Shown here piece by piece: positions 2,897 through 20,141 of a DNA stretch of 64,000 bases. The notes below the pieces were generated by a model. The model did not search any database, was not told where the DNA came from, and saw nothing but the letters and a program-made list of their open reading frames with translations. Position 1 is the stretch's first letter, and each line of letters begins with the position of its first letter. The translations under genes and the position numbers were made by a program. This stretch comes from a candidate division FCPU426 bacterium (GTDB lineage Bacteria; Oederibacteriota; Muellerivitia; Muellerivitales; Muellerivitaceae): contig CAVRAL010000004.1 of NCBI GenBank assembly GCA_963719085.1, forward strand, positions 256,001 through 320,000, read 5' to 3'.

Positions 2897-4063
2897 ATGG
2901 ATTTTTCTAGAATTGGGCGCGGAGTAATTTATTGGCCTGTTGGTAGCGGTGACTCTTCCACAATCATCGTTGACGAAAACACTATCATACAAGTGGATAT
3001 TAACAAGCGAGCTGACTCAGAAGAAGAAAATACCCTTTATACAAATATTGTTGAAAAGCTTAGAACTTCATTGCGAAAAAAGGATGCAAAGCCCTATCTC
3101 GATGTGTTCGTATTAACTCATCCAGACCAAGATCATTGTAAAGGATTCGAAGAACTTCTTAAAAATGTGACCATAGGAGAGTTATGGTTCACACCGCGAG
3201 TTTTCAAAGAATTCAAAACCGATTTATGCGATGACGCAAAAGCGTTTCACACAGAAGCAGAACGTCGAATCAAAAAAATCATCCAAGAAAATGGCAACGT
3301 CACTTCAGGTAACCGCGTTAAATTATTTGGTTATGACGAGATAATTGGTAAAGGTGGTGATTACGAAGGTTTTCCAAAAGAGCTTTTGATCATACCTGGA
3401 ACATCTTTTAACTCGGTCGATGGGGTTTATCGAACTGAAGTTGACTTTTTTGCGCATAGCCCATTCAAAGATGATATGGACGGAGAACGAAATCACACCA
3501 GCCTTTCATTTCAAACCGTACTTAAAAAAGCCAATAAAGAACTAAAATTACTTCACTTCGGCGATTTGGCACACTTGCAATTAAAAAAGATTTTTGAAAA
3601 AACGAGCGATTCAGACAATCTTGGGTGGCACGTTTTGCTTGCTCCCCACCATTGTTCAAAATCAGCTATGTATCACTCCGAAGACGCGGATAGCGAAGAA
3701 ACTCTTCAAGCCGATTTCATTACCGGAATAACTAGCACCAAAGAGAAAGTTGCTTATATTGTTTCAAGTAGTGAAATTATCCCAGCAGACAATGACAAAG
3801 GCGATAATCCACCTCATGCCAAAGCGAAAAATCGTTATGTAGAAGTTGTAAACGAAAATTTCTTTTGCACTCATGAACACCCTGATGAAAAAAATCCAGA
3901 GCCAATAATCTTCAGATTGAACGATGACGGGAACATCGTTCCACCACAGCCGACAAAAAAAGAAAAAAAGGACCAAGGAAAATCTTTGGGAGCGAGTATC
4001 TTGACCGCCAGAGGGACAACTAATCAACCTCCCAAAAACCCAAGGCAATTTGGTCATGCTTGA
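2897..4063 (+). CDS. Metallo-beta-lactamase-fold (ComEC/Rec2-like) hydrolase with a flexible C-tail ending ...RQFGHA
   Basis: VGSGDS, THPDQDH (HxDxDH), NHTS, FGD and PHHCS motifs of ComEC-type MBL domains. Confidence 0.85.
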   Translation: MDFSRIGRGVIYWPVGSGDSSTIIVDENTIIQVDINKRADSEEENTLYTNIVEKLRTSLRKKDAKPYLDVFVLTHPDQDHCKGFEELLKNVTIGELWFTPRVFKEFKTDLCDDAKAFHTEAERRIKKIIQENGNVTSGNRVKLFGYDEIIGKGGDYEGFPKELLIIPGTSFNSVDGVYRTEVDFFAHSPFKDDMDGERNHTSLSFQTVLKKANKELKLLHFGDLAHLQLKKIFEKTSDSDNLGWHVLLAPHHCSKSAMYHSEDADSEETLQADFITGITSTKEKVAYIVSSSEIIPADNDKGDNPPHAKAKNRYVEVVNENFFCTHEHPDEKNPEPIIFRLNDDGNIVPPQPTKKEKKDQGKSLGASILTARGTTNQPPKNPRQFGHA

Positions 4064-6266
4064 AAAACAACAGACAGCAGTTCAAGAACTAAGAGATATA
4101 GAATCAACATCTAATAATGGCATTGAGCTAGTAACATCGCCGCATTTCGATGTATCGACACAAACAACAGTTATGGAAATCTCTATCGATTGTTCAAGCT
4201 TTGAGATGCGCGGCAATAATCATTTGTCACTTTCTCAACGTGAACGAGTAGTGATATTTTTAGACAAGAATTATCCCTTTTCCATACCGATTGTTGCAGT
4301 TTTTCATAATAGATTCATTACTTCCGCACACGTTCAGTGGATGCGGGAATTTGAAAAATATAAGGCTGTACTACCCACAATTTGCCTATATCAATCACCA
4401 TCCAATGATTGGGAGCCAAGTGAAGGGATGTTTGGGCTTATGGATAGATTAGTAAAATGGTTTGCTCGCGGTGCCGTGGCAGAGCTTGATCTTCCCGGAG
4501 ACCCGATTCATGCTCCCCTTGCCTATTACAGTCAATCCAATCCTATTCGTATAGTTCTGAGCAAAAACGCTCCAACGGTTGGTAGAGAAAGTTGGATTGG
4601 ATATTTTAAATATAAACGCATTAAAGAAAACATTTACGAAGTCGTTGATTTCATTCAAGACACTGATATTGATGACAGTTGTGGCTTAGGTTGTGCTTTT
4701 TTATTACCTCACGAAACATTTTTTGAATTCCCCAATCAATTAGACCATTTAATAAAGCTCATAACAAACCACGGAAACATTAATCAATCCACGATTGCTT
4801 CTAATATGGCAAAAGTCCAAAATCGCATTGGAAAAAATTTTCCTTTATTTGTTATGGTAGGCTCACCGATGCGAGGAATTGCGGGCGAAGCAGAAAGAAA
4901 ACTGCATCTAGCCATCGGTGATATAAGTGCACAGGCCATAACAGACAAAACTGACTTAAACAGTATTAATTGGTGCAAATCTTACGAAAACCGTGAAGAA
5001 ATAATTATCAAAAGAGATAACTACTCAAATATCACTTCATTAAGAGATAAAAATATTTTACTTATCGGGGTTGGAGGTCTGGGAGGATATGCTGCCGAAT
5101 CAATCGTTCGTAGTGGAGCTAAAAAAATAACGGTAGTAGATTTCGGCGAAGTGCATCCAGGACTGTTATCAAGACAAAATTACACTCACGAAGATATTGG
5201 AAAACCAAAAGTCGAAGCAATCCGCGATAGAATTACCAAAGTAAATCCAAACTGCGAAGTAACAATTATCAATAACGATTTTCTGACGGTTGCCGATTCC
5301 ATTAAATTTGAAGATTTTGATTTCATCATTAATCTAAGCGCCTCAAATCCAATTAATCTATATTTTGAACAACTTTCGAAAACTAAAAGATTTCCAACTG
5401 TTGCAGTGGGACTTATAAGTGCCGATGCCAAAGTTTTGCTTGGAACAATATCCGACAAAACTTATATCGGCGGTCAAAAGCAATTACTTCGTAACTTTCA
5501 TATTCGAATGCTTTCTGATAGAGAATTAGAAGAAGTTACCAAGAAAATATGGCCTGAACCAGGCAATGAAAATAACTTTCAGCCAGAACCCGGTTGCTCT
5601 GAACCGACTTTTACCGGTTCTGCAACCGACATGCAATTCCTTTCGTCGTTTTTCATTAATCAAATTTCAGAATACTTCGGACAACAAAACACCACATCGG
5701 GCCGCTTATTTGGCATACATCAACCAACCAACGGAATTACAAAGACATGGAGTTTTTTCCCCGAATGTTATCAACAATTCGATATATCCGACAACGATGC
5801 TAAAGTTAGAATTTCATCAAAATCATTAGCACAATTAAAAAGCCATGTCGCAAAAGCACAAAAGTTACGTGGTTCATCTTGTGAAACAGGCGGCTTAATG
5901 TACGGAAGAGTTGAAAATGCTATCGATTTAATTTGGGTTGACGAATGTACCGATGCGCCAAGTAATAGTGAATTTTCCGCAAGTGGTTTTCATTGCGGGA
6001 CAAATGGAGTCGAAGAATTATCAAAAAAAATATCTAAAGCCACTAATGGAGAGAGTTGTTTCATTGGATATTGGCATACACATCCTAACGGGCCAACAAA
6101 GCCCAGTTTTACAGATTTACTTGCGGCATTTGAAACAGTTTCGACTTCCGGAGAAAATCTAAGACAAGTATTATTCATGATTATTAATCCGGACAATTTT
6201 TCATTTGATTTTTATTTCTTCGATCACGTTAACGGTCAATTAAGGATAGTCATTGTCAGAGAATAA
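4056..6266 (+). CDS. E2-E1(ThiF)-JAB fusion (Cap2/Cap3-like ubiquitin-like conjugation and deconjugation protein)
   Basis: N-terminal E2-like YPFSIP...AHVQ...TICLY. E1: LLIGVGGLGG...DFGEVHPGLLSRQ and EPGCSEPTF. JAB: ETGG...GYWHTHP...PSFTD. ATG at 4056 overlaps the MBL stop. Confidence 0.88.
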   Translation: MLEKQQTAVQELRDIESTSNNGIELVTSPHFDVSTQTTVMEISIDCSSFEMRGNNHLSLSQRERVVIFLDKNYPFSIPIVAVFHNRFITSAHVQWMREFEKYKAVLPTICLYQSPSNDWEPSEGMFGLMDRLVKWFARGAVAELDLPGDPIHAPLAYYSQSNPIRIVLSKNAPTVGRESWIGYFKYKRIKENIYEVVDFIQDTDIDDSCGLGCAFLLPHETFFEFPNQLDHLIKLITNHGNINQSTIASNMAKVQNRIGKNFPLFVMVGSPMRGIAGEAERKLHLAIGDISAQAITDKTDLNSINWCKSYENREEIIIKRDNYSNITSLRDKNILLIGVGGLGGYAAESIVRSGAKKITVVDFGEVHPGLLSRQNYTHEDIGKPKVEAIRDRITKVNPNCEVTIINNDFLTVADSIKFEDFDFIINLSASNPINLYFEQLSKTKRFPTVAVGLISADAKVLLGTISDKTYIGGQKQLLRNFHIRMLSDRELEEVTKKIWPEPGNENNFQPEPGCSEPTFTGSATDMQFLSSFFINQISEYFGQQNTTSGRLFGIHQPTNGITKTWSFFPECYQQFDISDNDAKVRISSKSLAQLKSHVAKAQKLRGSSCETGGLMYGRVENAIDLIWVDECTDAPSNSEFSASGFHCGTNGVEELSKKISKATNGESCFIGYWHTHPNGPTKPSFTDLLAAFETVSTSGENLRQVLFMIINPDNFSFDFYFFDHVNGQLRIVIVRE

Positions 6267-7365
6267 AAGAATCGGACTATGTCTTTCCGGTGGCGGCTTT
6301 CGAGCGGTTGCTTTTCATTTGGGGTGCCTCCAAGGCCTTAATAACCTTGGATTGCTTAAACACATTCGATCAATATCCTGTGTTTCTGGCGGCTCAATCA
6401 TAGGCACGCTCTACACTCTGTACGGTCAAACAGACTTTTCAGAATTTGAAAAAAGAACCAAAAGAATGTTACAAACTAGGCTTGATCTTAAAATTGCCTA
6501 TAAACATATTTCTTCAGGGCGATTCTTATTCGATCTTTGTCAGTTGGGCACGTGTCTTCCAATACGATTTATTTCTCAAAAACTAAACTTCAATTTTGAA
6601 TTTCAAAGAAAATATAGTCTGACCGAATCACTCGTTAAGATATTTGATAAAGAATTTGATAAAAAACTTCTATCAAATCTTCAAAACTCTCCCATTGAAC
6701 TTATTATTAACGGGATTGAATTAAGAACATTTAGTGCAATTCGTTTCGGAGCTAAAAAAGCTGTTTGTTGGAGATTCGGCGAGATCGACCCTTCTCTAAT
6801 TTCGTTGGGAGAAGCCGTTGCTGTTAGTGCGGCTTATCCCCTGCTTTTACCTGCCTTAGAGCGAAAATACAGTTTTTCAAAAAAGGGAATAACCTACAAG
6901 GAAACTGTTTCTTTATCTGATGGCGGAACATATGACAATCTTGGACTCACACCATTTATAAGCACAAATGACTTCGCAGATAGTTATCCCCGACCCGAAT
7001 TAGACTACATTATTGCATGCGACGCCGCTCACGGACAGCTTCATCCACAAACATTGCCACACACACCCATTTCAAGATTACACGCCGCATTCAAATCGTT
7101 GATGAGTCGTTCTAGGCACTCTAACTTTAAAACTCTTCATAAGCTTAAAGAAGATGGTGACATAAAAGGTTTTTCATTAGCTTATTTAGGTCAACAAGAT
7201 GAAAGAATCCCAATTCCACCTATCGATTTAGTTCAGAAAAATCGTGTGGACTCATATCCAACAGATTTTAAAAAAATGAGTGACGACAATTTTGAAGTTC
7301 TAACTAAACGCGGCAGACAACTCACCGAATCTTTAACTACGCACTATTTACCAGAATTATTTTGA
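6253..7365 (+). CDS. Patatin-like phospholipase
   Basis: LSGGGFRA oxyanion motif, CVSGGS nucleophile, DGG motif. Overlaps the upstream gene; AAGGA RBS. Confidence 0.88.
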   Translation: MSENKRIGLCLSGGGFRAVAFHLGCLQGLNNLGLLKHIRSISCVSGGSIIGTLYTLYGQTDFSEFEKRTKRMLQTRLDLKIAYKHISSGRFLFDLCQLGTCLPIRFISQKLNFNFEFQRKYSLTESLVKIFDKEFDKKLLSNLQNSPIELIINGIELRTFSAIRFGAKKAVCWRFGEIDPSLISLGEAVAVSAAYPLLLPALERKYSFSKKGITYKETVSLSDGGTYDNLGLTPFISTNDFADSYPRPELDYIIACDAAHGQLHPQTLPHTPISRLHAAFKSLMSRSRHSNFKTLHKLKEDGDIKGFSLAYLGQQDERIPIPPIDLVQKNRVDSYPTDFKKMSDDNFEVLTKRGRQLTESLTTHYLPELF

Positions 7366-7379
7366 ACAATAAAAAATTG

Positions 7380-10300
7380 TTATCTTTTATTCTCATTTAA
7401 TGGTGGCAAGCCATTAACAATCTTCATGGTTTCGAGACTAACCGTCACAATGCGCTTTACCAAGTTAAGAATATATTGGGGATCATCGGACCAGTCGTTA
7501 GGATCATTGGTTATCTGGCTGTCTGATTCTATTGAGACTTGATATCGTTCCATAATCCATTCCAGTGCCGGACGACCATTAACTACATAATCATAAGCCC
7601 TCAGCGGAATGTCTTTTAGCGTAATGTGACTGTTATACACAATTGTTGTTTTATCCACTTGTCCATCGAGCTTGCCAAATATCATCTTACGAACCTTATA
7701 AAATTCTTTTGAATTAAGGTCAAACTGATCTTTGCTTACTTCTAGGGGATAGGGGTCAATATCTTCATAGTGGAGATGCCATTTTGCTAAATCTCTGCCA
7801 GCTTTACTGAAAATCCAAAAATCCTGAGCAAAAGGAATTCTAGGAATCATCTTACCGAGATCTGAAGAGAACCGAGTTTTGTATTCAAAAGAATGAAGAA
7901 TGCCATAAACATAATAAAAAATATCTTCTTCCCCAATCTTTTTGTCCGAATATTTCTCCCTAAATAACTTTACCGAAATGTCAGAAATCGCTTTCGATAT
8001 TCCATTCTCTTCATGAAATTGAAACCCCAAATTTTCGGAATTTTCCAGTGATTCAGATTTTTTATTGTATCTCAGCGGAAAACATTGTCCTTTCGAGATC
8101 ATTTCAAGATCAGGCAAAGCGTTAGAAATTAAAGCTGAAAACTCTTTAGTCGCACCTCGCCCCGTTACACAGATCACAAGGTTTTCAGTATTTATATCAG
8201 GAAAATATTTCGGCATTTGATAAACAGTGTTATTAAAACTTCTATTGAAATAAATCCATTGTTTGCAAAATGGTCTATAAAGACTTTTTACGATCGATTC
8301 TTTTTGAAATTTATGTACAATTCCTTTTTCAACGTCCCACTTGAGTTCTCTTGTCCAACTAATTTTTTTCGGATCATTTTCCACAAATCCTTCAATAGAA
8401 ATGTTTTTGCTTTTTGTGGCCGTTTTATAGTCTTCTGTTTGTTCGTTGTAAAATCGAATCATTCGCTTAACGTTAGCGATCAATTCATTTTTATTAAAAT
8501 TATAAACCCACGCATCTCGATTAGTTTTCACTCCCATGGAGTAACTATTAAAAATCGAAATGTTTTTCTCGTCGTCTTTATCACCTAAAGGAATAAATTT
8601 TTCAAAAGTTGGGTCGCGGTGATTTATCCAATCATGACTCGAATTTGGGACAATCTTAGTCCAAGGAATTGCTTTCGAGCTTTCAAACTCGTTAATGATT
8701 TTCAGTTTTTGTTCGCGAGTTAAGTAATCACCAATATCGTGATAAAAAAGTTGGCAAGTTCCCTTTTTTTCAGGATTCTTTATAAGCAAAGTAATTGCTA
8801 TCGAAGTTCGCGTCCCTTCACCAAAGACACTTCCCTTTTCTTTACGTCTCTGCTCACCAGAAGTACGAGCATTCCCTCGAAGGTTAAAACAATAAATAGA
8901 TGTAAAATCGTCCGTTAGACACTTACGGAATCCATCCATAGCATTCCCATCAATAAAAGAACCATTACTGACATAACAGATAACACCCTTTTCACCAATA
9001 CGGTCACCAGCCCAACGAAAAGCTCGAATGTAGGAATCGTAAAGACTATTTTTGAGAGTGGCCGTAGAAAAAGCAGCGTAAGTTTGTCGAATTTTTTCAT
9101 CTAAGCTTGGATATTTTAAATTTTTGTTCCCATCATTTTCGCTCGCTTGTAAAGCTGAGTAAGGTGGATTTCCAACAATAACTCGAATATCTTTTTTCTT
9201 TTGACGCGTAACACGTTCGTTATTTTCAGGAAAATACTTTTCATCCCAAGGACTCTTCGGTTCCGACATTTGAAATGTATCAGTCAGAACAATCCCATCA
9301 AAAGGTTCATACTTTCCACCAGCAAGCCCGTGATAAGCCTCTTCAACATTGATCGCCGCAATGTAATAGGCCAAAAGGACAATTTCATTAGCATGTAGTT
9401 CTTCTTTAAATTTGCGTTTAAGGTCTTCGGGTTTAATCAAACCATTTTGAAGAAGACGAACTATGAAAGTTCCGGTGCCAGTAAACGGATCAAGAATGTT
9501 TACCCCTTTATCAGTGAGCCCAACACCAAATTCTTGCTTTAAAGCCTCGTCCGCGCTTTTGACAATAAAATCAACTACTTCAACTGGTGTATAGACAATT
9601 CCCAAGCGTTCAGCCATCCGAGGGAAAGCAGACCTAAAAAACTTGTCGTATAGCTCCACAATAATCCGCTGTCTACCTTTTGCGTTATCAACACCACTCG
9701 CTCTCTCTTTGACACTTTCATAAAACTTTTCCAATTTTGCAGTTTCCTTCTCTAAACTTGCACCTTCCAAAAGATCAAGCATCTTCTGCATAGCTATAGA
9801 AACGGGGTTTTGTTGGGTAAATTTATAGTTTTCAAAAAGAGCGTCAAAGACTGGTTTAGTAATTAGATGTTGAGAAAGCATTTCAACAGCTTCCTCTTTA
9901 TCAATACTTGGATTGAGATTGTCTTGAAGGCCTTTTAAGAATTCATCAAAAGCGGCTTTATGCTTAGGTTTCGCACCCTTTAACAAACCCTCAATGCGAG
10001 TTTTGTGTCTTTCGGCTATTTCAGCCACATCTTTAGCCCAGCTCTCCCAATAGCGACGGTCACCGCATTTAAGAACAATTTTGGCATAGATGGCATTTCG
10101 CCATTCTTCTATATCTGGAAACTTGAATGCGCTTTGCCCGTATGGGGCCTGCGTTTCATGCGCGCCTGAAGTTTGACCCTCCTCTGCCTTATCACTACCG
10201 CCTACCCCTATTACTTGAATCTGGTCAGGACGGGATTTGTTTAATTCGATTTGATTAACTGTGGCGTTAAAACGGTCGTCATGAGCGCGAAGGGCCTGCA

Positions 10301-12164
10301 AAACCTGCCAAACAACTTTATATTTTTTATTATCTTTTAACGCTTCTTCTGGCGGTGTGTTGGCAGGAACACCTATCGGAAGAATGATGTAACCATACTT
10401 TTTACCTTCGGCTTTTCTCATAACCCGTCCGACAGATTGGACTACGTCCACAACCGAATTACGGGGATTGAGAAACATAACTGCATCAAGAGCTGGAACA
10501 TCTACCCCTTCGGCCAGACAACGAGCATTACTAAGAATACGACAAACATCACCTTCCGAAGCTGTATCAGCTTTAAGCCAATCGAGTCTTTCATTGCGTT
10601 TCAGAGCATTAAAAGTGCCGTCAACGTGCTCAACCTGACAGGCTAGGAAATTGTCATCGTCTTCATGCTGTTTACGATATTGGTCAACAATATCGCCAAA
10701 GAGATTTGTAATTCTTTGAGAATCTTTAATTGATCGACAAAAAGCAACTGCCCGATGCATGTGACCAAGGTCATTGGCGATACCATCTATTTCAGAACCT
10801 TTAACAAAACGCTTACTCAAACCATTCCAGCAACCGGTTATCTTTACGGCATCTTCAAGATTAAGTTCGCTATTACTATCAGCCAACATTTTTTGCAAAG
10901 AATTATTAACGTAACTCTCATCAACAGCCAGAACCATGACTTTGTAATCCGAAAGCAAGTCTTTACGAACAGCTTCAGAAAAATCCAAACGATAAAACTC
11001 TTTCCCATAAAGCGATTCGTCATCCATTGAACAGATTTCCGCATTTGCCTCTTCGGCCTTGGTTCTTGATTCATCACTGTAAATACGCGGAGTGGCCGTC
11101 ATATAAAGGCGTTTACCGCCTTTTATGAATTTCGGATCGTGAACTTTAACGAAATGGGATTCATCATCCCCTTCCAAAGTTACGCCTGTCGTTCTATGCG
11201 CTTCGTCGCAAATAATTAGATCAAAATCAGGCGCGCCTAACTTTTGGGCCTCTGAAATAACTTTAATAGATTGGTAGGTACTGAAAATAACCGTTAATTG
11301 CTTTTTACCGCCAAAAGCTTTTAATTGTGCCGCAAGTTTCTTTGCGTTAGTTGTTGCTGGTAATGGAAGATCGTGAGCTTGTATATCTTCACTCTCATTT
11401 TTCCTACCCACCTTAACATCTGAGCAAACCGCAAAATTATGAAGGGAAGCTTCTGCTTCCGCAGTCCACTCTCTTAGCGTTTGAGAAACAAGTGAGATTG
11501 AAGGCGCCAAAAAAAGAATAAATCCTTTCTCTCCCGCCATCTTTTCAGCGATTTTAAGAGAAGTGAAAGTTTTGCCCGTTCCACAAGCCATGATTAGTTT
11601 GCCGCGATCAGCTTTTTTAAATCCTTCAAGTGCATTGGAAAGAGCTTCTTTTTGATGATCTCTAAGTCTCTTTTTCTCTTTTAGTTTTATATTTTGAGGG
11701 CGGCTAAGGCTGAATTGGTTCCAATCAATCGGACTGTTAGCGAGGTCTTGAACCCTTAAGCGGGTAACCGGTGTCCGTTGGTTTTCCAAAGCTTCTTCAG
11801 CATGATTACTCCACTTGTCAGTAGTGGAAACGATCATTCGAGTGGTAAACGGCTCTTTACCTGAAGTAGTAAAAAATGAATCTATATCAGCTTTTTGGAG
11901 ATTGTAGTTAGGGTCATAAAATTTGCACTGAATGGCGCAAAATTCACCCGTATAGCGATCTTTAGCTACAAGGTCGATGCCAGTATCAGGCTTCTTTCCA
12001 CGGCCAGGCCATTCCGACCAAAGCCAAACGTCACTAAATTGATCTTTGTATATTGGGTCAGTGACAAGATAGTTGGCAATTAAACGTTCAAACTTATCAC
12101 CCAAGTCACGATTAGAGGTTGCCGCTTGTCTGAATTCTTCCAGCAACGTATGTATTGTTGTCAT
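7380..12164 (-). CDS. Type ISP restriction-modification enzyme (Mrr-like nuclease, SF2 helicase, N6-adenine MTase, TRD)
   Basis: DTGIDLVA..AIQCK nuclease; MACGTGKT and DEAH helicase; DPFTGTG and GNPPY MTase; 1594 aa, LlaGI/LlaBIII-like architecture. Confidence 0.93.
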   Translation of the reverse strand: MTTIHTLLEEFRQAATSNRDLGDKFERLIANYLVTDPIYKDQFSDVWLWSEWPGRGKKPDTGIDLVAKDRYTGEFCAIQCKFYDPNYNLQKADIDSFFTTSGKEPFTTRMIVSTTDKWSNHAEEALENQRTPVTRLRVQDLANSPIDWNQFSLSRPQNIKLKEKKRLRDHQKEALSNALEGFKKADRGKLIMACGTGKTFTSLKIAEKMAGEKGFILFLAPSISLVSQTLREWTAEAEASLHNFAVCSDVKVGRKNESEDIQAHDLPLPATTNAKKLAAQLKAFGGKKQLTVIFSTYQSIKVISEAQKLGAPDFDLIICDEAHRTTGVTLEGDDESHFVKVHDPKFIKGGKRLYMTATPRIYSDESRTKAEEANAEICSMDDESLYGKEFYRLDFSEAVRKDLLSDYKVMVLAVDESYVNNSLQKMLADSNSELNLEDAVKITGCWNGLSKRFVKGSEIDGIANDLGHMHRAVAFCRSIKDSQRITNLFGDIVDQYRKQHEDDDNFLACQVEHVDGTFNALKRNERLDWLKADTASEGDVCRILSNARCLAEGVDVPALDAVMFLNPRNSVVDVVQSVGRVMRKAEGKKYGYIILPIGVPANTPPEEALKDNKKYKVVWQVLQALRAHDDRFNATVNQIELNKSRPDQIQVIGVGGSDKAEEGQTSGAHETQAPYGQSAFKFPDIEEWRNAIYAKIVLKCGDRRYWESWAKDVAEIAERHKTRIEGLLKGAKPKHKAAFDEFLKGLQDNLNPSIDKEEAVEMLSQHLITKPVFDALFENYKFTQQNPVSIAMQKMLDLLEGASLEKETAKLEKFYESVKERASGVDNAKGRQRIIVELYDKFFRSAFPRMAERLGIVYTPVEVVDFIVKSADEALKQEFGVGLTDKGVNILDPFTGTGTFIVRLLQNGLIKPEDLKRKFKEELHANEIVLLAYYIAAINVEEAYHGLAGGKYEPFDGIVLTDTFQMSEPKSPWDEKYFPENNERVTRQKKKDIRVIVGNPPYSALQASENDGNKNLKYPSLDEKIRQTYAAFSTATLKNSLYDSYIRAFRWAGDRIGEKGVICYVSNGSFIDGNAMDGFRKCLTDDFTSIYCFNLRGNARTSGEQRRKEKGSVFGEGTRTSIAITLLIKNPEKKGTCQLFYHDIGDYLTREQKLKIINEFESSKAIPWTKIVPNSSHDWINHRDPTFEKFIPLGDKDDEKNISIFNSYSMGVKTNRDAWVYNFNKNELIANVKRMIRFYNEQTEDYKTATKSKNISIEGFVENDPKKISWTRELKWDVEKGIVHKFQKESIVKSLYRPFCKQWIYFNRSFNNTVYQMPKYFPDINTENLVICVTGRGATKEFSALISNALPDLEMISKGQCFPLRYNKKSESLENSENLGFQFHEENGISKAISDISVKLFREKYSDKKIGEEDIFYYVYGILHSFEYKTRFSSDLGKMIPRIPFAQDFWIFSKAGRDLAKWHLHYEDIDPYPLEVSKDQFDLNSKEFYKVRKMIFGKLDGQVDKTTIVYNSHITLKDIPLRAYDYVVNGRPALEWIMERYQVSIESDSQITNDPNDWSDDPQYILNLVKRIVTVSLETMKIVNGLPPLNENKR

Positions 12165-12290: not shown

Positions 12291-14003
12291 TTATTTTTCG
12301 TTCCCCTTCAAAAACTCCCCATCCCATAACCTGTTTTGATCTATTTCCTTCTGATCCGCGAGATGTTCTTTTATGAAATTTTGAACCCGAGGAATACCTG
12401 CCGAATCGAGCAACGCCCGTTTAAGCCATTCAGTAAATGCTTCTTTTGAGCCTTCTCGTAAATAAACATTTCCAATTTCAAGGAAAATTCGAATTTCAAG
12501 AATCTGCGGCAAATTGACACTTGATACTCGATATCTACTCTTCAAATAACTTTCAAAAACAGAAACTATGTCCGCAATATTCCACGGGAATTTTTGTTTG
12601 GTAATAACATAATATGCAATAGTTTCAATTGAACATTTATCAAATAACGCCACATGCTTTTCAGCAACTTTTTCCCATTCGGGACGTTTTAATTCCGTTT
12701 TGATAACTCGATTATATAAGACATATTCCACAAGCATTCTTCGCCGATTATCTTCGTCCACCTGGCCGAATTGTTGTTCAAAGACTTTAAATAATTCATC
12801 CAGAGAAGTCAGGCCGTTTTTATCACCTATCAAAGCACTTTGAAATTCTTGAAAAAATCCGGTTAAATATTCACCGCATCTTTGAGATGTAAACCCCGCA
12901 TGATTTCCAATCCAATACTCAGGAGCCAATCTCATTTTGAACATTCCCGGTAAATCGGAATACCAGTCATACTGTTCTTTTTCAAGATGTTCCCCACGGG
13001 CAATAAATTGTTCAATAACATGGTTCGCCAATCGAAACATGCCCCTATACGATAAATAAGGTGAGTTCTCCCAAACAAACGCATCGGCACGGGCAATCAC
13101 AGGTACTTTCAATTGATCGAGAATCGGTTTGAGAACATGAGCAAATTCTGAGCGGAATTTATAAGCTTCTGAAAGCGCCTTACGAAGTTCGCTTTTTCGA
13201 ATAGGTCTTTGAATGTCGGTTATTTCTTGAATAAAGTAATCATCCGTAACATGAGAAAGAATAAATTCGACAAATTGAAATTGCGATTTAACGTGTGCTG
13301 ATTCCAATAAAACTTTTCTAATTTCCTGTATCTTTTCAATGCTTAATTCAACTTCTACAGTTTCAAGTTTTCTTTTTACATCTTCGTGGTAATCATCCCA
13401 AGTTGCAGTAAAACCGCTATGTCCTATGGACAGGGATTCCAATGCAAAAACAAGAAGTGTGTAAGCCAGATCAATGTTGTAGTTCAGAACAACCAAAGAA
13501 TTTTCAATTGTCTCAAGACATCGAATAACAGCTTTATACTTCGCGCGCGGCAAACCTATTACCTTTTTAACGAACTTCTCAAAATCATCTACAGTTTTAG
13601 GACTACCAAGTACTTGTTTACTACAATAACCAGACACAAAAGCCGCAGGAACGTAAACATCTCCTTTAGTTATCTGCTCTCTTCGGCACTGGTAAATAAT
13701 GTCTTGTTCGTTTTTGGCAAAAAAAGATTTAAAACCAAACATAGCCAAAAGCCTAAACTGGACCCTTATTTCTTCATCATCGGCTAAAACCACCACACCA
13801 GCTTTCTGCGGCGCTTTCTCCAGTTGATTAACAAAATTAAAAACATAAGAATTAACTAACGAATATCGATCAACCCCATCAAGGTCACCGACACATGTCT
13901 TTATTGCACCTATCCAAGCAAAGTTTGAGTAATAGATGGCTTTTTCATTACTTGTATTTCGTTCTTCGGAATTAAAAAACTTCCCAGAAATTATCTGTAA
14001 CAA
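12291..14003 (-). CDS. HEPN-motif protein (ApeA-like), putative defence RNase
   Basis: 570 aa. LVFALESL followed later by AYKFRSEFAH (Rx4H) at 13137-13154. TTG start with GAGG RBS. Confidence 0.6.
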   Translation of the reverse strand: MLQIISGKFFNSEERNTSNEKAIYYSNFAWIGAIKTCVGDLDGVDRYSLVNSYVFNFVNQLEKAPQKAGVVVLADDEEIRVQFRLLAMFGFKSFFAKNEQDIIYQCRREQITKGDVYVPAAFVSGYCSKQVLGSPKTVDDFEKFVKKVIGLPRAKYKAVIRCLETIENSLVVLNYNIDLAYTLLVFALESLSIGHSGFTATWDDYHEDVKRKLETVEVELSIEKIQEIRKVLLESAHVKSQFQFVEFILSHVTDDYFIQEITDIQRPIRKSELRKALSEAYKFRSEFAHVLKPILDQLKVPVIARADAFVWENSPYLSYRGMFRLANHVIEQFIARGEHLEKEQYDWYSDLPGMFKMRLAPEYWIGNHAGFTSQRCGEYLTGFFQEFQSALIGDKNGLTSLDELFKVFEQQFGQVDEDNRRRMLVEYVLYNRVIKTELKRPEWEKVAEKHVALFDKCSIETIAYYVITKQKFPWNIADIVSVFESYLKSRYRVSSVNLPQILEIRIFLEIGNVYLREGSKEAFTEWLKRALLDSAGIPRVQNFIKEHLADQKEIDQNRLWDGEFLKGNEK

Positions 14004-14717: not shown

Positions 14718-15194
14718 CTAAAGCAGCCCGGCTTGTCTAAAAGAAAAGTGACCTTCATGAGTAACGATTAAATGGTCATGAACCGCTATGCCCAAAGCCC
14801 TTGAGGCGGTCACGATCTGACGGGTTAACTGCTTATCGCCTTCACTGGGTTCCAAGCTTCCGGCGGGGTGGTTGTGGGAAAATATCAGCCCCGTGGCGTT
14901 TAATTCCAAAGCCAATTTCAAAATCTCTCTGGGATAAACCGCCGTATGGTCTACCGTGCCTTCGGTATTCAAAACCACATCCAAAACATGATTACGATGG
15001 TCTAGGTACATGGTCAAAAAAGCTTCCTTGGCCCTGCCGCCAATGTACTTACGGAAATATTCGGCGGCGTTTTGGGGCTCGCTAACGACGGGGCCTCTTT
15101 TGTAATCCATTCGTGCTTCGGCCCATGAGGTAACGGGAATGGTCGGCGGGGGAAGGGCATCCACACTCAATTTCAGTTCAAGTTGCTTTTTCAT
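14718..15194 (-). CDS. radC: RadC-family JAB domain protein (mobile-element type)
   Basis: EAFLTMYLD...GTVDHTAVYPREI...HNHPAGSLEPSEGD...DHLIV. GGAGG RBS at 15202-15206 supports ATG 15194. Confidence 0.9.
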   Translation of the reverse strand: MKKQLELKLSVDALPPPTIPVTSWAEARMDYKRGPVVSEPQNAAEYFRKYIGGRAKEAFLTMYLDHRNHVLDVVLNTEGTVDHTAVYPREILKLALELNATGLIFSHNHPAGSLEPSEGDKQLTRQIVTASRALGIAVHDHLIVTHEGHFSFRQAGLL

Positions 15195-15881
15195 ATAACG
15201 GCCTCCTTTTTTCATCTGGTTTTTCTGAAGGTTTTTTGCCTTTGAAAAACCGCCTTCCGCCTCCCCCCTTGCCCAAAAGAGGGGGGAGGAAGAAGGCCAT
15301 AGAGGAGGTTTGAGCGTTCGCGCTGACAGGACCAAAAACGAATGGGATACCAAACGAAGGGAGGCCATCCCTTAACTTTTGTGACAGCCGCCCTTTGGCT
15401 GGCGCAAAAGTTGCCTTGCAAGGGTGGCCGTGAAGGGATAAACAGGGTCTAGGGGCAGGGCGAACGATCAAAACTTTCCATCGTTCTAAGCCCTAAAACG
15501 GATGACCATCTACGGGGTTTGACTTGAGTTGGGCTTAATACAGCTGTGGGGACATCTACTTGGTGGTTAATGACTGATCACCTTAACCACTGATACTTTG
15601 AACTTCTCTTGAACCGACTTAAAACGACTGACTATTCACAAGCTTCACAATCTAAGATTCCTTCATCTTTAACTTCTCTTATACCTAATCACCTTCTTTC
15701 CTCAGGCTTATCAATTCGGCTTTCTTCACCTCCCAGTTCTTTTTCTTCTCTTCTTCATCCTTCCACTTCCCCGCTAATTGCCCAGCCTACCTCTTACCTC
15801 ACCACCCACTACTTCTTTACCCATCCCCCATATCCTTCTCTATGCCTTTGTGTTCCATGATTCTTCTCATCTCGTCTTTGA

Positions 15882-16484: not shown

Positions 16485-17663
16485 ATGGCTTTTTTAAAGA
16501 TGAAGGTCAAACAATGCGAGGATAACCGTGAAGAGCTGAGAGCCTATGCCTACGATTCTTACGTGCTGAATGGGCAACAAAAGCAATTTTCTGTCCATAG
16601 ATTCGGCTTATGTCGCGATAAAGCCGATGCGAATGAACGTTTCAAAAAATGGCTAAAAACTTACAAAGAAGCCAAAGCCCAAAAGCGGCTATTACCTAAG
16701 ACCCCAACTTTGCAGGAATTCGCACCTTTATACCTTGAACGAAATGAACAGTTAACCGGCAACAAACACCAAAGCAAAGCCTCGTTGAAACACCTCATTA
16801 GACACCTTGGGAAACGCCCTTTAGATCAAATCACAAGGCTGGTCGTTTTGAACTATCGGGATTCCAGGACAAGTGAACCCATTAAAACAAAAGGCAAAAA
16901 TAAGGGAAAATTTCCGAGCCCCAAAACCATTAACCACGAACTTTCAACCCTATCCAGCTTGGTACGAAAAGCTCTCGAACTTGAACAGATCAAAGAACAT
17001 CCCTTTTTAAAATACGGCATCAGCCTTAAACGAAACTTCTTCTTAAAAGTAGTTCAAACCCCAAAACCCGCCCTAACCCGCCAAGAGTTTATGTCCCTCA
17101 TGGAAAGCACTACTGAAGAACGTTCGAAGGTAATTACCTTGCTCTATGCCGTAACGGGAATGCGCCAAGGCGAACTGATAAACTTACGGTTGACCGACAT
17201 TGATTTAGACCAAAACCGAATTACCTTTAGAGCACCGAAGACAGGTGACTTTAGGACGTTGGCAATCCCTAGCGTCTTAAAACCCCTCTTTGAAAAGCTT
17301 CTCACTCACCTGCCCTTAAGAACAGGCTGGCAGAAACGGAAACCCTATCAACGAGAACATATCCTTTGTAACCAAAAGGGTGAACAACAGAAGACGCCGG
17401 GGAAGGATTTTATGACTCAAGCCGCTCAAAGGGCCGGTATTAAAAAGCACGTCACGCCCCACATTTTAAGACATTCGTTTTGCTCCCATGCGGCCAACCA
17501 TGTCAATATTTGGGAGCTTAAAGAACTAATGGGACATAAAAACATCACCACCACGGAGATTTACGTTAAAACCTTCAAAACGCCTGATGTAGAGACAGCC
17601 AACAAAATTACAGGAAGTTTGGGGATTGATGCCAACTTTTTAAACTCGGTCTTATCGAATTAG
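16485..17663 (+). CDS. Tyrosine recombinase / phage-type integrase
   Basis: TGMRQGEL, PKT, HILRHSF and MGHKNITTTEIY catalytic motifs. Confidence 0.93.
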   Translation: MAFLKMKVKQCEDNREELRAYAYDSYVLNGQQKQFSVHRFGLCRDKADANERFKKWLKTYKEAKAQKRLLPKTPTLQEFAPLYLERNEQLTGNKHQSKASLKHLIRHLGKRPLDQITRLVVLNYRDSRTSEPIKTKGKNKGKFPSPKTINHELSTLSSLVRKALELEQIKEHPFLKYGISLKRNFFLKVVQTPKPALTRQEFMSLMESTTEERSKVITLLYAVTGMRQGELINLRLTDIDLDQNRITFRAPKTGDFRTLAIPSVLKPLFEKLLTHLPLRTGWQKRKPYQREHILCNQKGEQQKTPGKDFMTQAAQRAGIKKHVTPHILRHSFCSHAANHVNIWELKELMGHKNITTTEIYVKTFKTPDVETANKITGSLGIDANFLNSVLSN

Positions 17664-19595: not shown

Positions 19596-20141
19596 TTATG
19601 AGCCGAAAACTGTACTGGCAAAATGAAAGTCCGAAGTCTCTTGCGCAATCTTTTTAATCTCTTTCGGAGCTTTCCCAATAGTTGTCAATAATGCTTCAAA
19701 CGCAATAGGAAACGAAGAGCCGTTCGGGTCTTCCCATTCTTTTGTGTGAGTATGGCAATAGTCGATCATTTGCCCGAAGGAATGCTTTTTAAACTTTTTA
19801 TCGATTTCATTCAAAATCTTTTCTTCGGCTTCGGAAAGTTCGCCGTCGCCTGGGTCTTGTATCAAAGCCACTTCGAAGCCCTGTTTCTTGATGGAAATCA
19901 TCCAATATTTATTCTCGGATTTCCCTTTCAGCCAGTCATAAACTTCGCTCAAAACAGGACCGTTATCCATCGATACATAACTTCCACCAATAATGGGACG
20001 ATTCCATTTCTTTAAAGCTTCACGATCAGAAAGATACATAAGCTTAATCATTTTTGTGTAATTAAGACGCTTGCCATTACTTTTAATAAAGTAGGCTGCC
20101 ACCTGCGTGGCTTTGAGTGGATTTAATTGAAAAGCGATCAT
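19596..20141 (-). CDS. Panacea/SocA (DUF4065) antitoxin
   Basis: KMIKLMYLSDR...YVSMDNGPVLSEVYD...YCH...EW motifs; AGGAG RBS. Confidence 0.85.
   Translation of the reverse strand: MIAFQLNPLKATQVAAYFIKSNGKRLNYTKMIKLMYLSDREALKKWNRPIIGGSYVSMDNGPVLSEVYDWLKGKSENKYWMISIKKQGFEVALIQDPGDGELSEAEEKILNEIDKKFKKHSFGQMIDYCHTHTKEWEDPNGSSFPIAFEALLTTIGKAPKEIKKIAQETSDFHFASTVFGS

Follow-up and report, generated by a model that had tools for sequence, protein, structure and literature searches.

The 64,000-nucleotide stretch analysed here (the window; positions 256,001 to 320,000 of contig CAVRAL010000004.1, candidate division FCPU426 assembly GCA_963719085.1) carries a three-gene operon of the 6A-MBL kind, predicted to be anti-phage. 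It encodes a metallo-β-lactamase (MBL) hydrolase with a ComEC- and Pce-like core, a fusion of E2, E1 and JAB domains resembling Cap2 and Cap3, and a patatin phospholipase. The MBL enzyme carries a C-terminal tail with a conserved aromatic-Gly motif, and we consider it likely, from comparison of sequences, that this tail is a conjugation tag through which the E2-E1-JAB protein would attach the whole enzyme. A first-pass annotation, made from the DNA letters and a list of open reading frames (ORFs), had proposed such a whole-enzyme tag; the idea now finds support in the conservation of the tail, in the synteny of the ligase gene, in invariant catalytic residues and in Cap2 being the nearest solved relative of the ligase.

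The 388-amino-acid MBL ORF (2897-4063, + strand) ends in ...PPKNPRQFG-HA (DGNIVPPQPTKKEKKDQGKSLGASILTARGTTNQPPKNPRQFGHA, followed by the stop; PTKKEKKDQGKSLGASILTARGTTNQPPKNPRQFGHA). Phe385-Gly386 occupies nucleotides 4049-4054, His387-Ala388 nucleotides 4055-4060 and the stop codon 4061-4063. The downstream ORF is listed from a TTG at 4050 to 6266. An in-frame ATG at 4056-4058 sits within the CAT-GCT codons for His-Ala, and alignment with 34 relatives places the N terminus of the E2-E1-JAB protein at this ATG. The sequence thereby confirms what had first been described, an FG end plus two residues whose codons are overlapped by the next gene's ATG.

We aligned the MBL enzyme with 75 homologues of 44-70% identity. 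Gly386 is invariant in all 75, and conservation reaches 90% or more at Phe385, Ala371, Arg372, Gly373 and Pro379; the linker that joins the core to the tail is not conserved. Among the best 120 homologues listed, 112 have FG, seven YG and one HG, and 119 carry [FYHW][GA] within their last 8 residues. The number of residues trailing the Gly is 0 in 8 of these proteins, 1 in 17, 2 in 27, 3 in 43, 4 in 23, 5 in 1 and 11 in 1, with Arg or Lys as the first residue past the Gly in 56 of the 112 extended tails. We then scanned a single genome from each species, which gave 308 relatives, and tails and gene context were taken from the best 80 loci. At every one of these 80, the protein ends in [F/Y/H]-Gly plus 0-6 residues; the 73 distinct tails comprise 42 FG, 30 YG and one HG, and 9 of the 73 stop exactly on the Gly. 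The first-pass annotation had made its proposal depend on FG being conserved near the C terminus of homologues, and the aligned termini do keep an aromatic-Gly 0-6 residues from the end. None of the computational tests capable of refuting the proposal did so. Most members of the family are pre-proteins with a short extension after the Gly, an observation that looks new.

Searching 1.84 billion cluster representatives (50% identity) with a profile returned 1052 relatives at E ≤ 0.001, and our diverged set consists of the 80 near-full-length proteins (355-460 amino acids) among the 150 listed. In 70 of these 80, [FYHW][GA] falls in the last 8 residues, and in 36 it is exactly terminal; internal 8-residue windows of the same proteins carry it in 2339 of 28077 cases (8.3%). 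The binomial probability for this terminal enrichment, 2e-64, is overstated, since the sequences share kinship. One diverged group stops exactly on an aromatic-Ala (FA in four and YA in three of the 80 representatives). Five plasmid relatives of 24-33% identity end in TYGK, RAGVSNQ, PHGAS, RAG and RAG.

The tail is encoded where the MBL gene runs into the ligase gene. With a heuristic choice of start, the predicted ligase start lies inside the Gly codon, the extension or the stop at 50 of 67 distinct junctions, and so the variable post-Gly residues largely overlap the translational-coupling zone. The 72 distinct nucleotide tails encode the Gly as GGC (28), GGT (17), GGG (14) or GGA (13) and the aromatic residue as TTC, TTT, TAC, TAT or CAC, which includes both Phe and both Tyr codons. 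The spacing from the Gly codon to the downstream start varies, and the motif is kept across loci of 34-69% G+C. This synonymous variety, with all four Gly codons in use, argues that the constraint on the tail acts at the protein level, not on the overlapping DNA.

The predicted ligase is a constant companion of the MBL enzyme. At 78 of the 79 loci that could be assessed, its gene comes directly 3′ of the MBL gene; the eightieth locus is on a contig that ends. In the sole exception, locus L023, an insertion of about 1.8 kb separates the MBL gene from the remainder of the ligase gene. The insert there (7125-8950) carries a 477-amino-acid ORF on the opposite strand (7125-8558), and this copy of the ligase looks disrupted because it is matched only from residue ~261 onward.

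Pfam gives the domain order of the window's ligase as Prok-E2_A (residues 12-157; 7.5e-15), ThiF (326-460; 7.5e-24) and Prok-JAB (602-711; 3.8e-09). The approximate domains are E2 at 12-157 with Cys110, a linker, E1 at 300-570 with a GxGxxG motif at 338-343 and Cys514, and JAB/JAMM at 580-715. The CBASS (cyclic oligonucleotide-based antiphage signaling system) models of PADLOC also match it, for E1-E2 at 8.6e-66 and for JAB at 9.8e-21. Among solved structures, Cap2 (7TO3/7TQD, E 7.3e-23) is its nearest relative, and the E1 domain additionally matches ThiF, MoeB and MccB. In an alignment of 35 E2-E1-JAB proteins, which are 26-31% identical to the one in the window, the invariant residues include His92 and Cys110 of E2; G338, G340, G343, R352, D362, R373, Q374 and K385 of the E1 nucleotide site; E1 Cys514 within PEPGCS; and E610, H674, H676, S684 and D687 of the JAMM site.

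The core of the MBL enzyme is a distinct part of the protein. It matches the NCBIfam equivalog NF058524.1, 6A-MBL_enzyme, labelled "anti-phage 6A-MBL system MBL-fold protein", at 302.4 bits (cut-off, 220). This match spans residues 12-345 only and ends ahead of the tail; the Pfam Lactamase_B_2 match is weak. An AlphaFold2 model built with the 75 homologues has an MBL fold with a mean predicted local distance difference test (pLDDT) score of 88.7, and residues 1-345 are confident. Block means of pLDDT fall from 93 at residues 341-350 to 65 and 60 in the next two blocks, with values of 52-68 from residue 351. By DSSP, the tail of the model has a single short helix, residues 364-372, and a disordered end after it; the model, an MBL core with a disordered one-helix tail, contains no beta-grasp domain. 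Residues 346-388 include 6 Lys and 6 Pro among 43, and the early description of the tail as Lys/Pro-rich and low in structure holds. The best Foldseek matches in the PDB are the MBL domain of ComEC (9ic4, E 1.5e-11) and the pneumococcal phosphorylcholine esterase Pce (2bib/1wra), and because of these the enzyme is most likely a nuclease or phosphodiesterase, as judged from the model. The metal-site positions H75, D77, D79, H80, H187, D223 and H251 are invariant in the alignment. We also tried to name the MBL system with PADLOC, but its 2023 library lacks a model for 6A-MBL. Weak matches to other MBL effectors (RTasMBL, PDC-M48B and LmuA) were all that the MBL protein gave, and this route was rejected. 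The ORF list and Pfam revealed no gene for a beta-grasp ubiquitin-like protein in the operon, and no small ubiquitin-like ORF either.

Since the E2-E1-JAB protein is homologous to Cap2/Cap3, we infer a conjugation mechanism that covers trimming of His-Ala, adenylation, acyl transfer, ligation, the target and the effect on MBL activity. The JAB domain would cut off His-Ala and expose Gly386. The E1 domain would bind the tail and adenylate the Gly386 carboxylate with ATP; the acyl group would then pass to Cys514 of E1 and on to Cys110 of E2, and Gly386 would finally be joined as an amide to an amine of some target. The JAB domain may reverse the ligation too. If type II CBASS is a guide, attachment would prime the MBL hydrolase, activate it or fix its location, and the patatin phospholipase would be a co-effector in killing the infected cell. 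Individual steps of this kind have been described for related proteins. In the cryo-electron microscopy of Cap2 presented in the available text of the Ledvina preprint (10.1101/2022.03.31.486616), the disordered C terminus of the substrate enters the E1 site and is adenylated. The biochemistry of Jenson et al. 2023, in the part of that paper available, includes Gly/Ala-dependent thioesters, lysine isopeptides and cleavage by Cap3 exactly past the C-terminal residue (PMC10097602). Ye et al. 2024 state, in their accessible text, that MBL pathways conjugate their enzyme (PMC11601596).

Modelling the tail with the ligase had been suggested in the first-pass annotation as a check. We predicted a complex of MBL residues 345-386 with the entire E2-E1-JAB protein in the presence of ATP and Mg, and obtained an ipSAE (interaction prediction score from aligned errors) of 0.39 (runs of 0.39, 0.43 and 0.32); the best of three controls scored 0.00. 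The runs have at least 12% of contacts in common, and the pLDDT of the partner is at least 48. Of 157 solved complexes, 116 reach the mark applied, as do 2 of 215 mismatches; 18 of the 157 and both mismatches do so at 0.60 or under. The tail scored above the controls; the prediction counts as weak support and gives no interface.

Several points weigh against a conjugation tag. The complex prediction is weak support, with no interface or contacts reported, and its pass may reflect memory of the solved complex of Cap2 with a cGAS/DncV-like nucleotidyltransferase (CD-NTase). Ten of the 80 diverged representatives have no aromatic-Gly or aromatic-Ala in the last 8 residues: three end in RAG(+0/1), one in RLG, one in YG+8 and one in SYSA, and four have no such ending, which may be mis-called ends. 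The best NCBIfam match of the E2-E1-JAB protein, NF058523.1 or 6A-MBL_cap2_3 (E 8.4e-84), scores 282.3 bits, under the cut-off of 320; for this reason the protein is classed, on its sequence, as a diverged member. The CBASS analogy, moreover, leaves the role of the patatin unexplained, because the operon has no nucleotide synthase.

Other readings of the same tail have to be weighed. If the tail were a pro-peptide or auto-inhibitory segment, cleavage by JAB would switch the MBL enzyme on, and E1 and E2 would act elsewhere. MBL nucleases of other defence systems that are paired with trypsin-like proteases are, in the accessible text of two reports, pro-enzymes activated by cleavage (PMC12799240; 10.1101/2025.11.14.688446), and the MBL core here is ComEC-like, as is HamM in the former; most close relatives, too, have 1-4 residues after the Gly. 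There is, however, nothing to cut in 36 of the 80 diverged representatives, 8 of the 120 homologues and 9 of the 73 locus tails, and it is unlikely that trimming a disordered end by two residues would act as a switch. Nor does activation by protease alone account for the invariant catalytic residues of E1 and E2 in an operon without another candidate substrate. We regard it as improbable.

No better placed is a purely structural role, in which the helix and the aromatic-Gly end merely anchor the MBL enzyme to a scaffold of E2-E1-JAB, perhaps with the patatin, and neither adenylation nor transfer takes place. The Ala-Arg-Gly helix, 12-22 residues from the end, resembles a binding element, and the complex prediction, which exceeds its controls, cannot separate binding from chemistry. 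Docking would nevertheless leave unexplained why a small residue is invariant at or near the free C terminus, why Gly and Ala alternate there as in CD-NTase substrates, and why all ATP-site and Cys residues are retained. It strikes us as unlikely.

The third possibility keeps the chemistry and makes a lipid the acceptor. In an ATG8-style lipidation, the amine that receives Gly386 from the ATG7/ATG3-like E1-E2 would belong to a membrane lipid, for example phosphatidylethanolamine, instead of a protein lysine. Proteins of the ATG8/LC3 type are synthesized with an aromatic-Gly and a short extension that a protease removes, and the aromatic-Gly plus extension of the MBL enzyme recalls them. The idea drew on the lipid-acting patatin partner found in 63 of 75 relatives. 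Family 6a and 6b E1s are the bacterial E1s closest to ATG7, according to the available portion of the Ledvina preprint (10.1101/2022.03.31.486616), and lipid conjugation was raised as a possibility for CBASS in the part of Jenson et al. at hand (PMC10097602). The systems differ in that the substrate here is an MBL enzyme, not a beta-grasp protein, and the protease a JAMM metalloprotease, not a cysteine protease like ATG4. If lipidation were true, a ComEC/Pce-like phosphodiesterase would be tethered to the membrane, on its inner face, at the point of phage DNA entry, and the patatin would act on the same membrane, remodelling the anchor or lysing the cell. We rate lipid as the acceptor to be about as improbable as the two preceding readings.

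It is more improbable still that the chemistry stops at E1, where adenylation of Gly386 would be followed by thiocarboxylation or some other modification, as in substrates of the ThiS/MoaD or MccB type. The matches of the E1 domain to ThiF, MoeB and MccB would fit, but an E2 with invariant His92 and Cys110 and a JAMM peptidase are fused to this E1, Pfam found no rhodanese or sulfur-transfer domain, and the best match is Cap2. Least credible of all is that the conserved end is a by-product of the gene overlap, set by the next gene's start or ribosome-binding site: the downstream starts within the extension or stop would agree with it, but nucleotide-level constraint as the cause of tail conservation is ruled out by the codon variety. 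Activation by protease alone, docking, E1-only chemistry and the overlap by-product each miss at least one of four observations, namely the invariant terminal small residue, the members that end on it, the invariant E1/E2 cysteines and the codon variety.

A tag for whole-enzyme conjugation fits what is known of this kind of operon. Operon type "6a", as described by Iyer, Burroughs and Aravind in 2006, has an MBL-fold gene and then a single E2-E1-JAB protein and is "usually two genes" (PMC1779556, section 14, Table 1); the word "patatin" has 0 occurrences in that paper. The window agrees with 6A-MBL in that its MBL protein passes the 6A-MBL enzyme model and its MBL gene is followed directly by E2-E1-JAB. 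It differs in the ligase score given above and in the patatin, which in this branch is conserved as a third gene or a C-terminal fusion. The system was reportedly named and tested as 6A-MBL by van den Berg et al. in 2024. It is now counted with the anti-phage systems and is mentioned in the available text of four further reports (PMC13276650, PMC13700489, 10.1101/2025.09.30.679545 and PMC13373217). Because the 6a operon type was described in 2006 and Ye et al. have made their statement, the concept of enzyme conjugation for MBL pathways is already in print, and the kind known is 6A-MBL. In the literature searched, which did not include the full text and supplements of van den Berg et al. 2024, we found no description of the MBL C-terminal motif, the processing extension or the patatin partner. 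The first-pass annotation had neither recognized the known 6A-MBL system nor mentioned the conserved patatin gene.

With type II CBASS, the operon shares a Cap2-like E1-E2 of equal catalytic layout, a JAB peptidase and, going by the accessible accounts of that system, a substrate enzyme whose disordered tail ends in Gly/Ala and takes the place of a beta-grasp ubiquitin-like protein; patatin phospholipases serve as effectors there also (CapV, in the available part of PMC10097602). Neither Pfam nor PADLOC found a nucleotidyltransferase of the CD-NTase type in or beside the operon, and for want of one the locus is not type II CBASS. An MBL hydrolase replaces the CD-NTase, a single chain combines Cap2 and Cap3, and no cyclic-nucleotide logic is tied to the patatin. 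The tails differ as well. CD-NTases had been credited at first with termini of the F-G/F-A type, which does not agree with Jenson et al. 2023, who report, in the text available, that the last residue is Gly/Ala and that the penultimate residue varies (PMC10097602); in the MBL family, the penultimate residue is aromatic and conserved. Most MBL members have 1-4 post-Gly residues that would need processing, whereas the last residue of a CD-NTase, as far as that text goes, is itself Gly/Ala. The MBL family itself does end in aromatic-Gly and, in one clade, in aromatic-Ala. Bil and Bub likewise combine E1 and E2 with a JAB peptidase whose processing of a pre-protein frees the reactive C terminus, as the accessible text of PMC11601596 has it, but they use separate beta-grasp ubiquitin-like proteins, whereas here the enzyme itself bears the tail.

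If the tag is real, whole-enzyme ubiquitin-like conjugation without a ubiquitin fold would extend to a second enzyme class, beyond the bacterial cGAS-like enzymes to which its demonstration is so far confined in the literature covered. A specialist would expect conjugation at such a locus; the family-wide motif, the extension and the fusions of ligase and patatin are testable handles. The invariance of Gly386 together with the two-residue extension offers one for experiment, since intact mass would report processing by JAB. A tryptic cut at Arg383 should leave a Gln-Phe-Gly remnant on the attachment target, which should therefore be directly findable.

The third gene of the operon starts 14 nucleotides before the end of the E2-E1-JAB gene, and its product matches Pfam Patatin at 6.6e-17. 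No PADLOC or NCBIfam model matched this protein, and no PDB sequence matched it at E ≤ 0.01. Conservation across 58 sequences is at least 95% for the GGGxRA oxyanion loop, Ser45 and Asp223-Gly-Gly. Among 75 assessable relatives, the patatin is an in-frame C-terminal fusion to E2-E1-JAB in 33, a separate adjacent gene in 30 and not directly downstream in 12. The separate adjacent genes usually overlap the ligase gene by a few bases, and several of the 12 loci carry a patatin gene elsewhere within 6 kb. From this arrangement, the patatin gene appears to belong to the 6A-MBL unit in this branch, and its adjacency or fusion looks new. Because the patatin is conserved and often fused to the ligase, the arrangement suggests that three activities, those of ligase, nuclease-like hydrolase and membrane-attacking enzyme, function together as a unit. 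Distant plasmid relatives form two-gene operons in Clostridium perfringens and Klebsiella pneumoniae; the patatin gene is adjacent in Agrobacterium tumefaciens and two genes off in a Deinococcus plasmid. An Acinetobacter johnsonii plasmid (L083) has a second MBL-like gene after E2-E1-JAB (7980-9050), recognized as such because its product begins with an MBL-type motif (…THPDRDH…), at the place where the window has the patatin. On this plasmid (3497-4399) and on a Klebsiella plasmid (L082, 3498-4352), genes for WYL-domain regulators lie divergent and upstream of the MBL gene; the window has none.

Table 1. Features of the operon and of the MBL tail, with positions in the window
Feature	Position	Strand	Basis or remark
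MBL-fold enzyme of 6A-MBL system, 388 amino acids	2897..4063	+	Core residues 1-345 plus C-terminal appendix
Linker, variable, charged, Lys/Pro-rich, residues 346-363	3932..3985	+	No column conservation; AlphaFold2 pLDDT falls
Short conserved helix ending Ala-Arg-Gly, residues 364-373 (LGASILTARG)	3986..4015	+	DSSP and alignment
Pro-containing stretch to Phe385-Gly386 (TTNQPPKNPRQFG)	4016..4054	+	Gly386 is the proposed attachment residue
His387-Ala388 extension and stop	4055..4063	+	Contains the ATG of the next gene
Cap2/Cap3-like E2-E1-JAB fusion, 736 amino acids from ATG 4056	4056..6266	+	Pfam, PADLOC, NCBIfam, PDB
Patatin-like phospholipase, 370 amino acids, TTG start, third operon gene	6253..7365	+	Pfam Patatin

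Relatives of the MBL enzyme are widespread, occurring on 282 plasmid records, among them 125 of Klebsiella, 31 of Clostridium, 25 of Escherichia and 18 of Acinetobacter, and 139 of the records are typed as conjugative. A search of the MBL protein against a phage collection gave no match.

The ORF upstream of the operon (2353-2787, + strand, 144 amino acids) matches the sce7726 family weakly, at 29.1 bits (cut-off, 70), and PADLOC Csn2 weakly too. It was considered as a component of the system and rejected: tblastn found no relative of it at any of the 80 related loci, which makes membership improbable.

The surroundings, window positions 1-20141, look like a mobile defence island. They contain an IrrE/M78 peptidase (1-750), RadC (14718-15368), a tyrosine integrase (16485-17663) and a SocA/Panacea antitoxin domain (19596-20141); a scan for integration sites found no tRNA in window positions 1-24000. 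A 570-amino-acid ORF (12291-14003, - strand) without a Pfam or PADLOC match may be an unknown defence-island gene. It adjoins a type IIG restriction-modification enzyme of 1594 amino acids (7380-12164, - strand; PADLOC REase_MTase_IIG, 2297.9 bits), which converges on the operon and ends 14 nucleotides past the patatin stop. Housekeeping genes, including those for a sulfate permease, rpoD, dnaG and mutS2, follow from about 21 kb onward.

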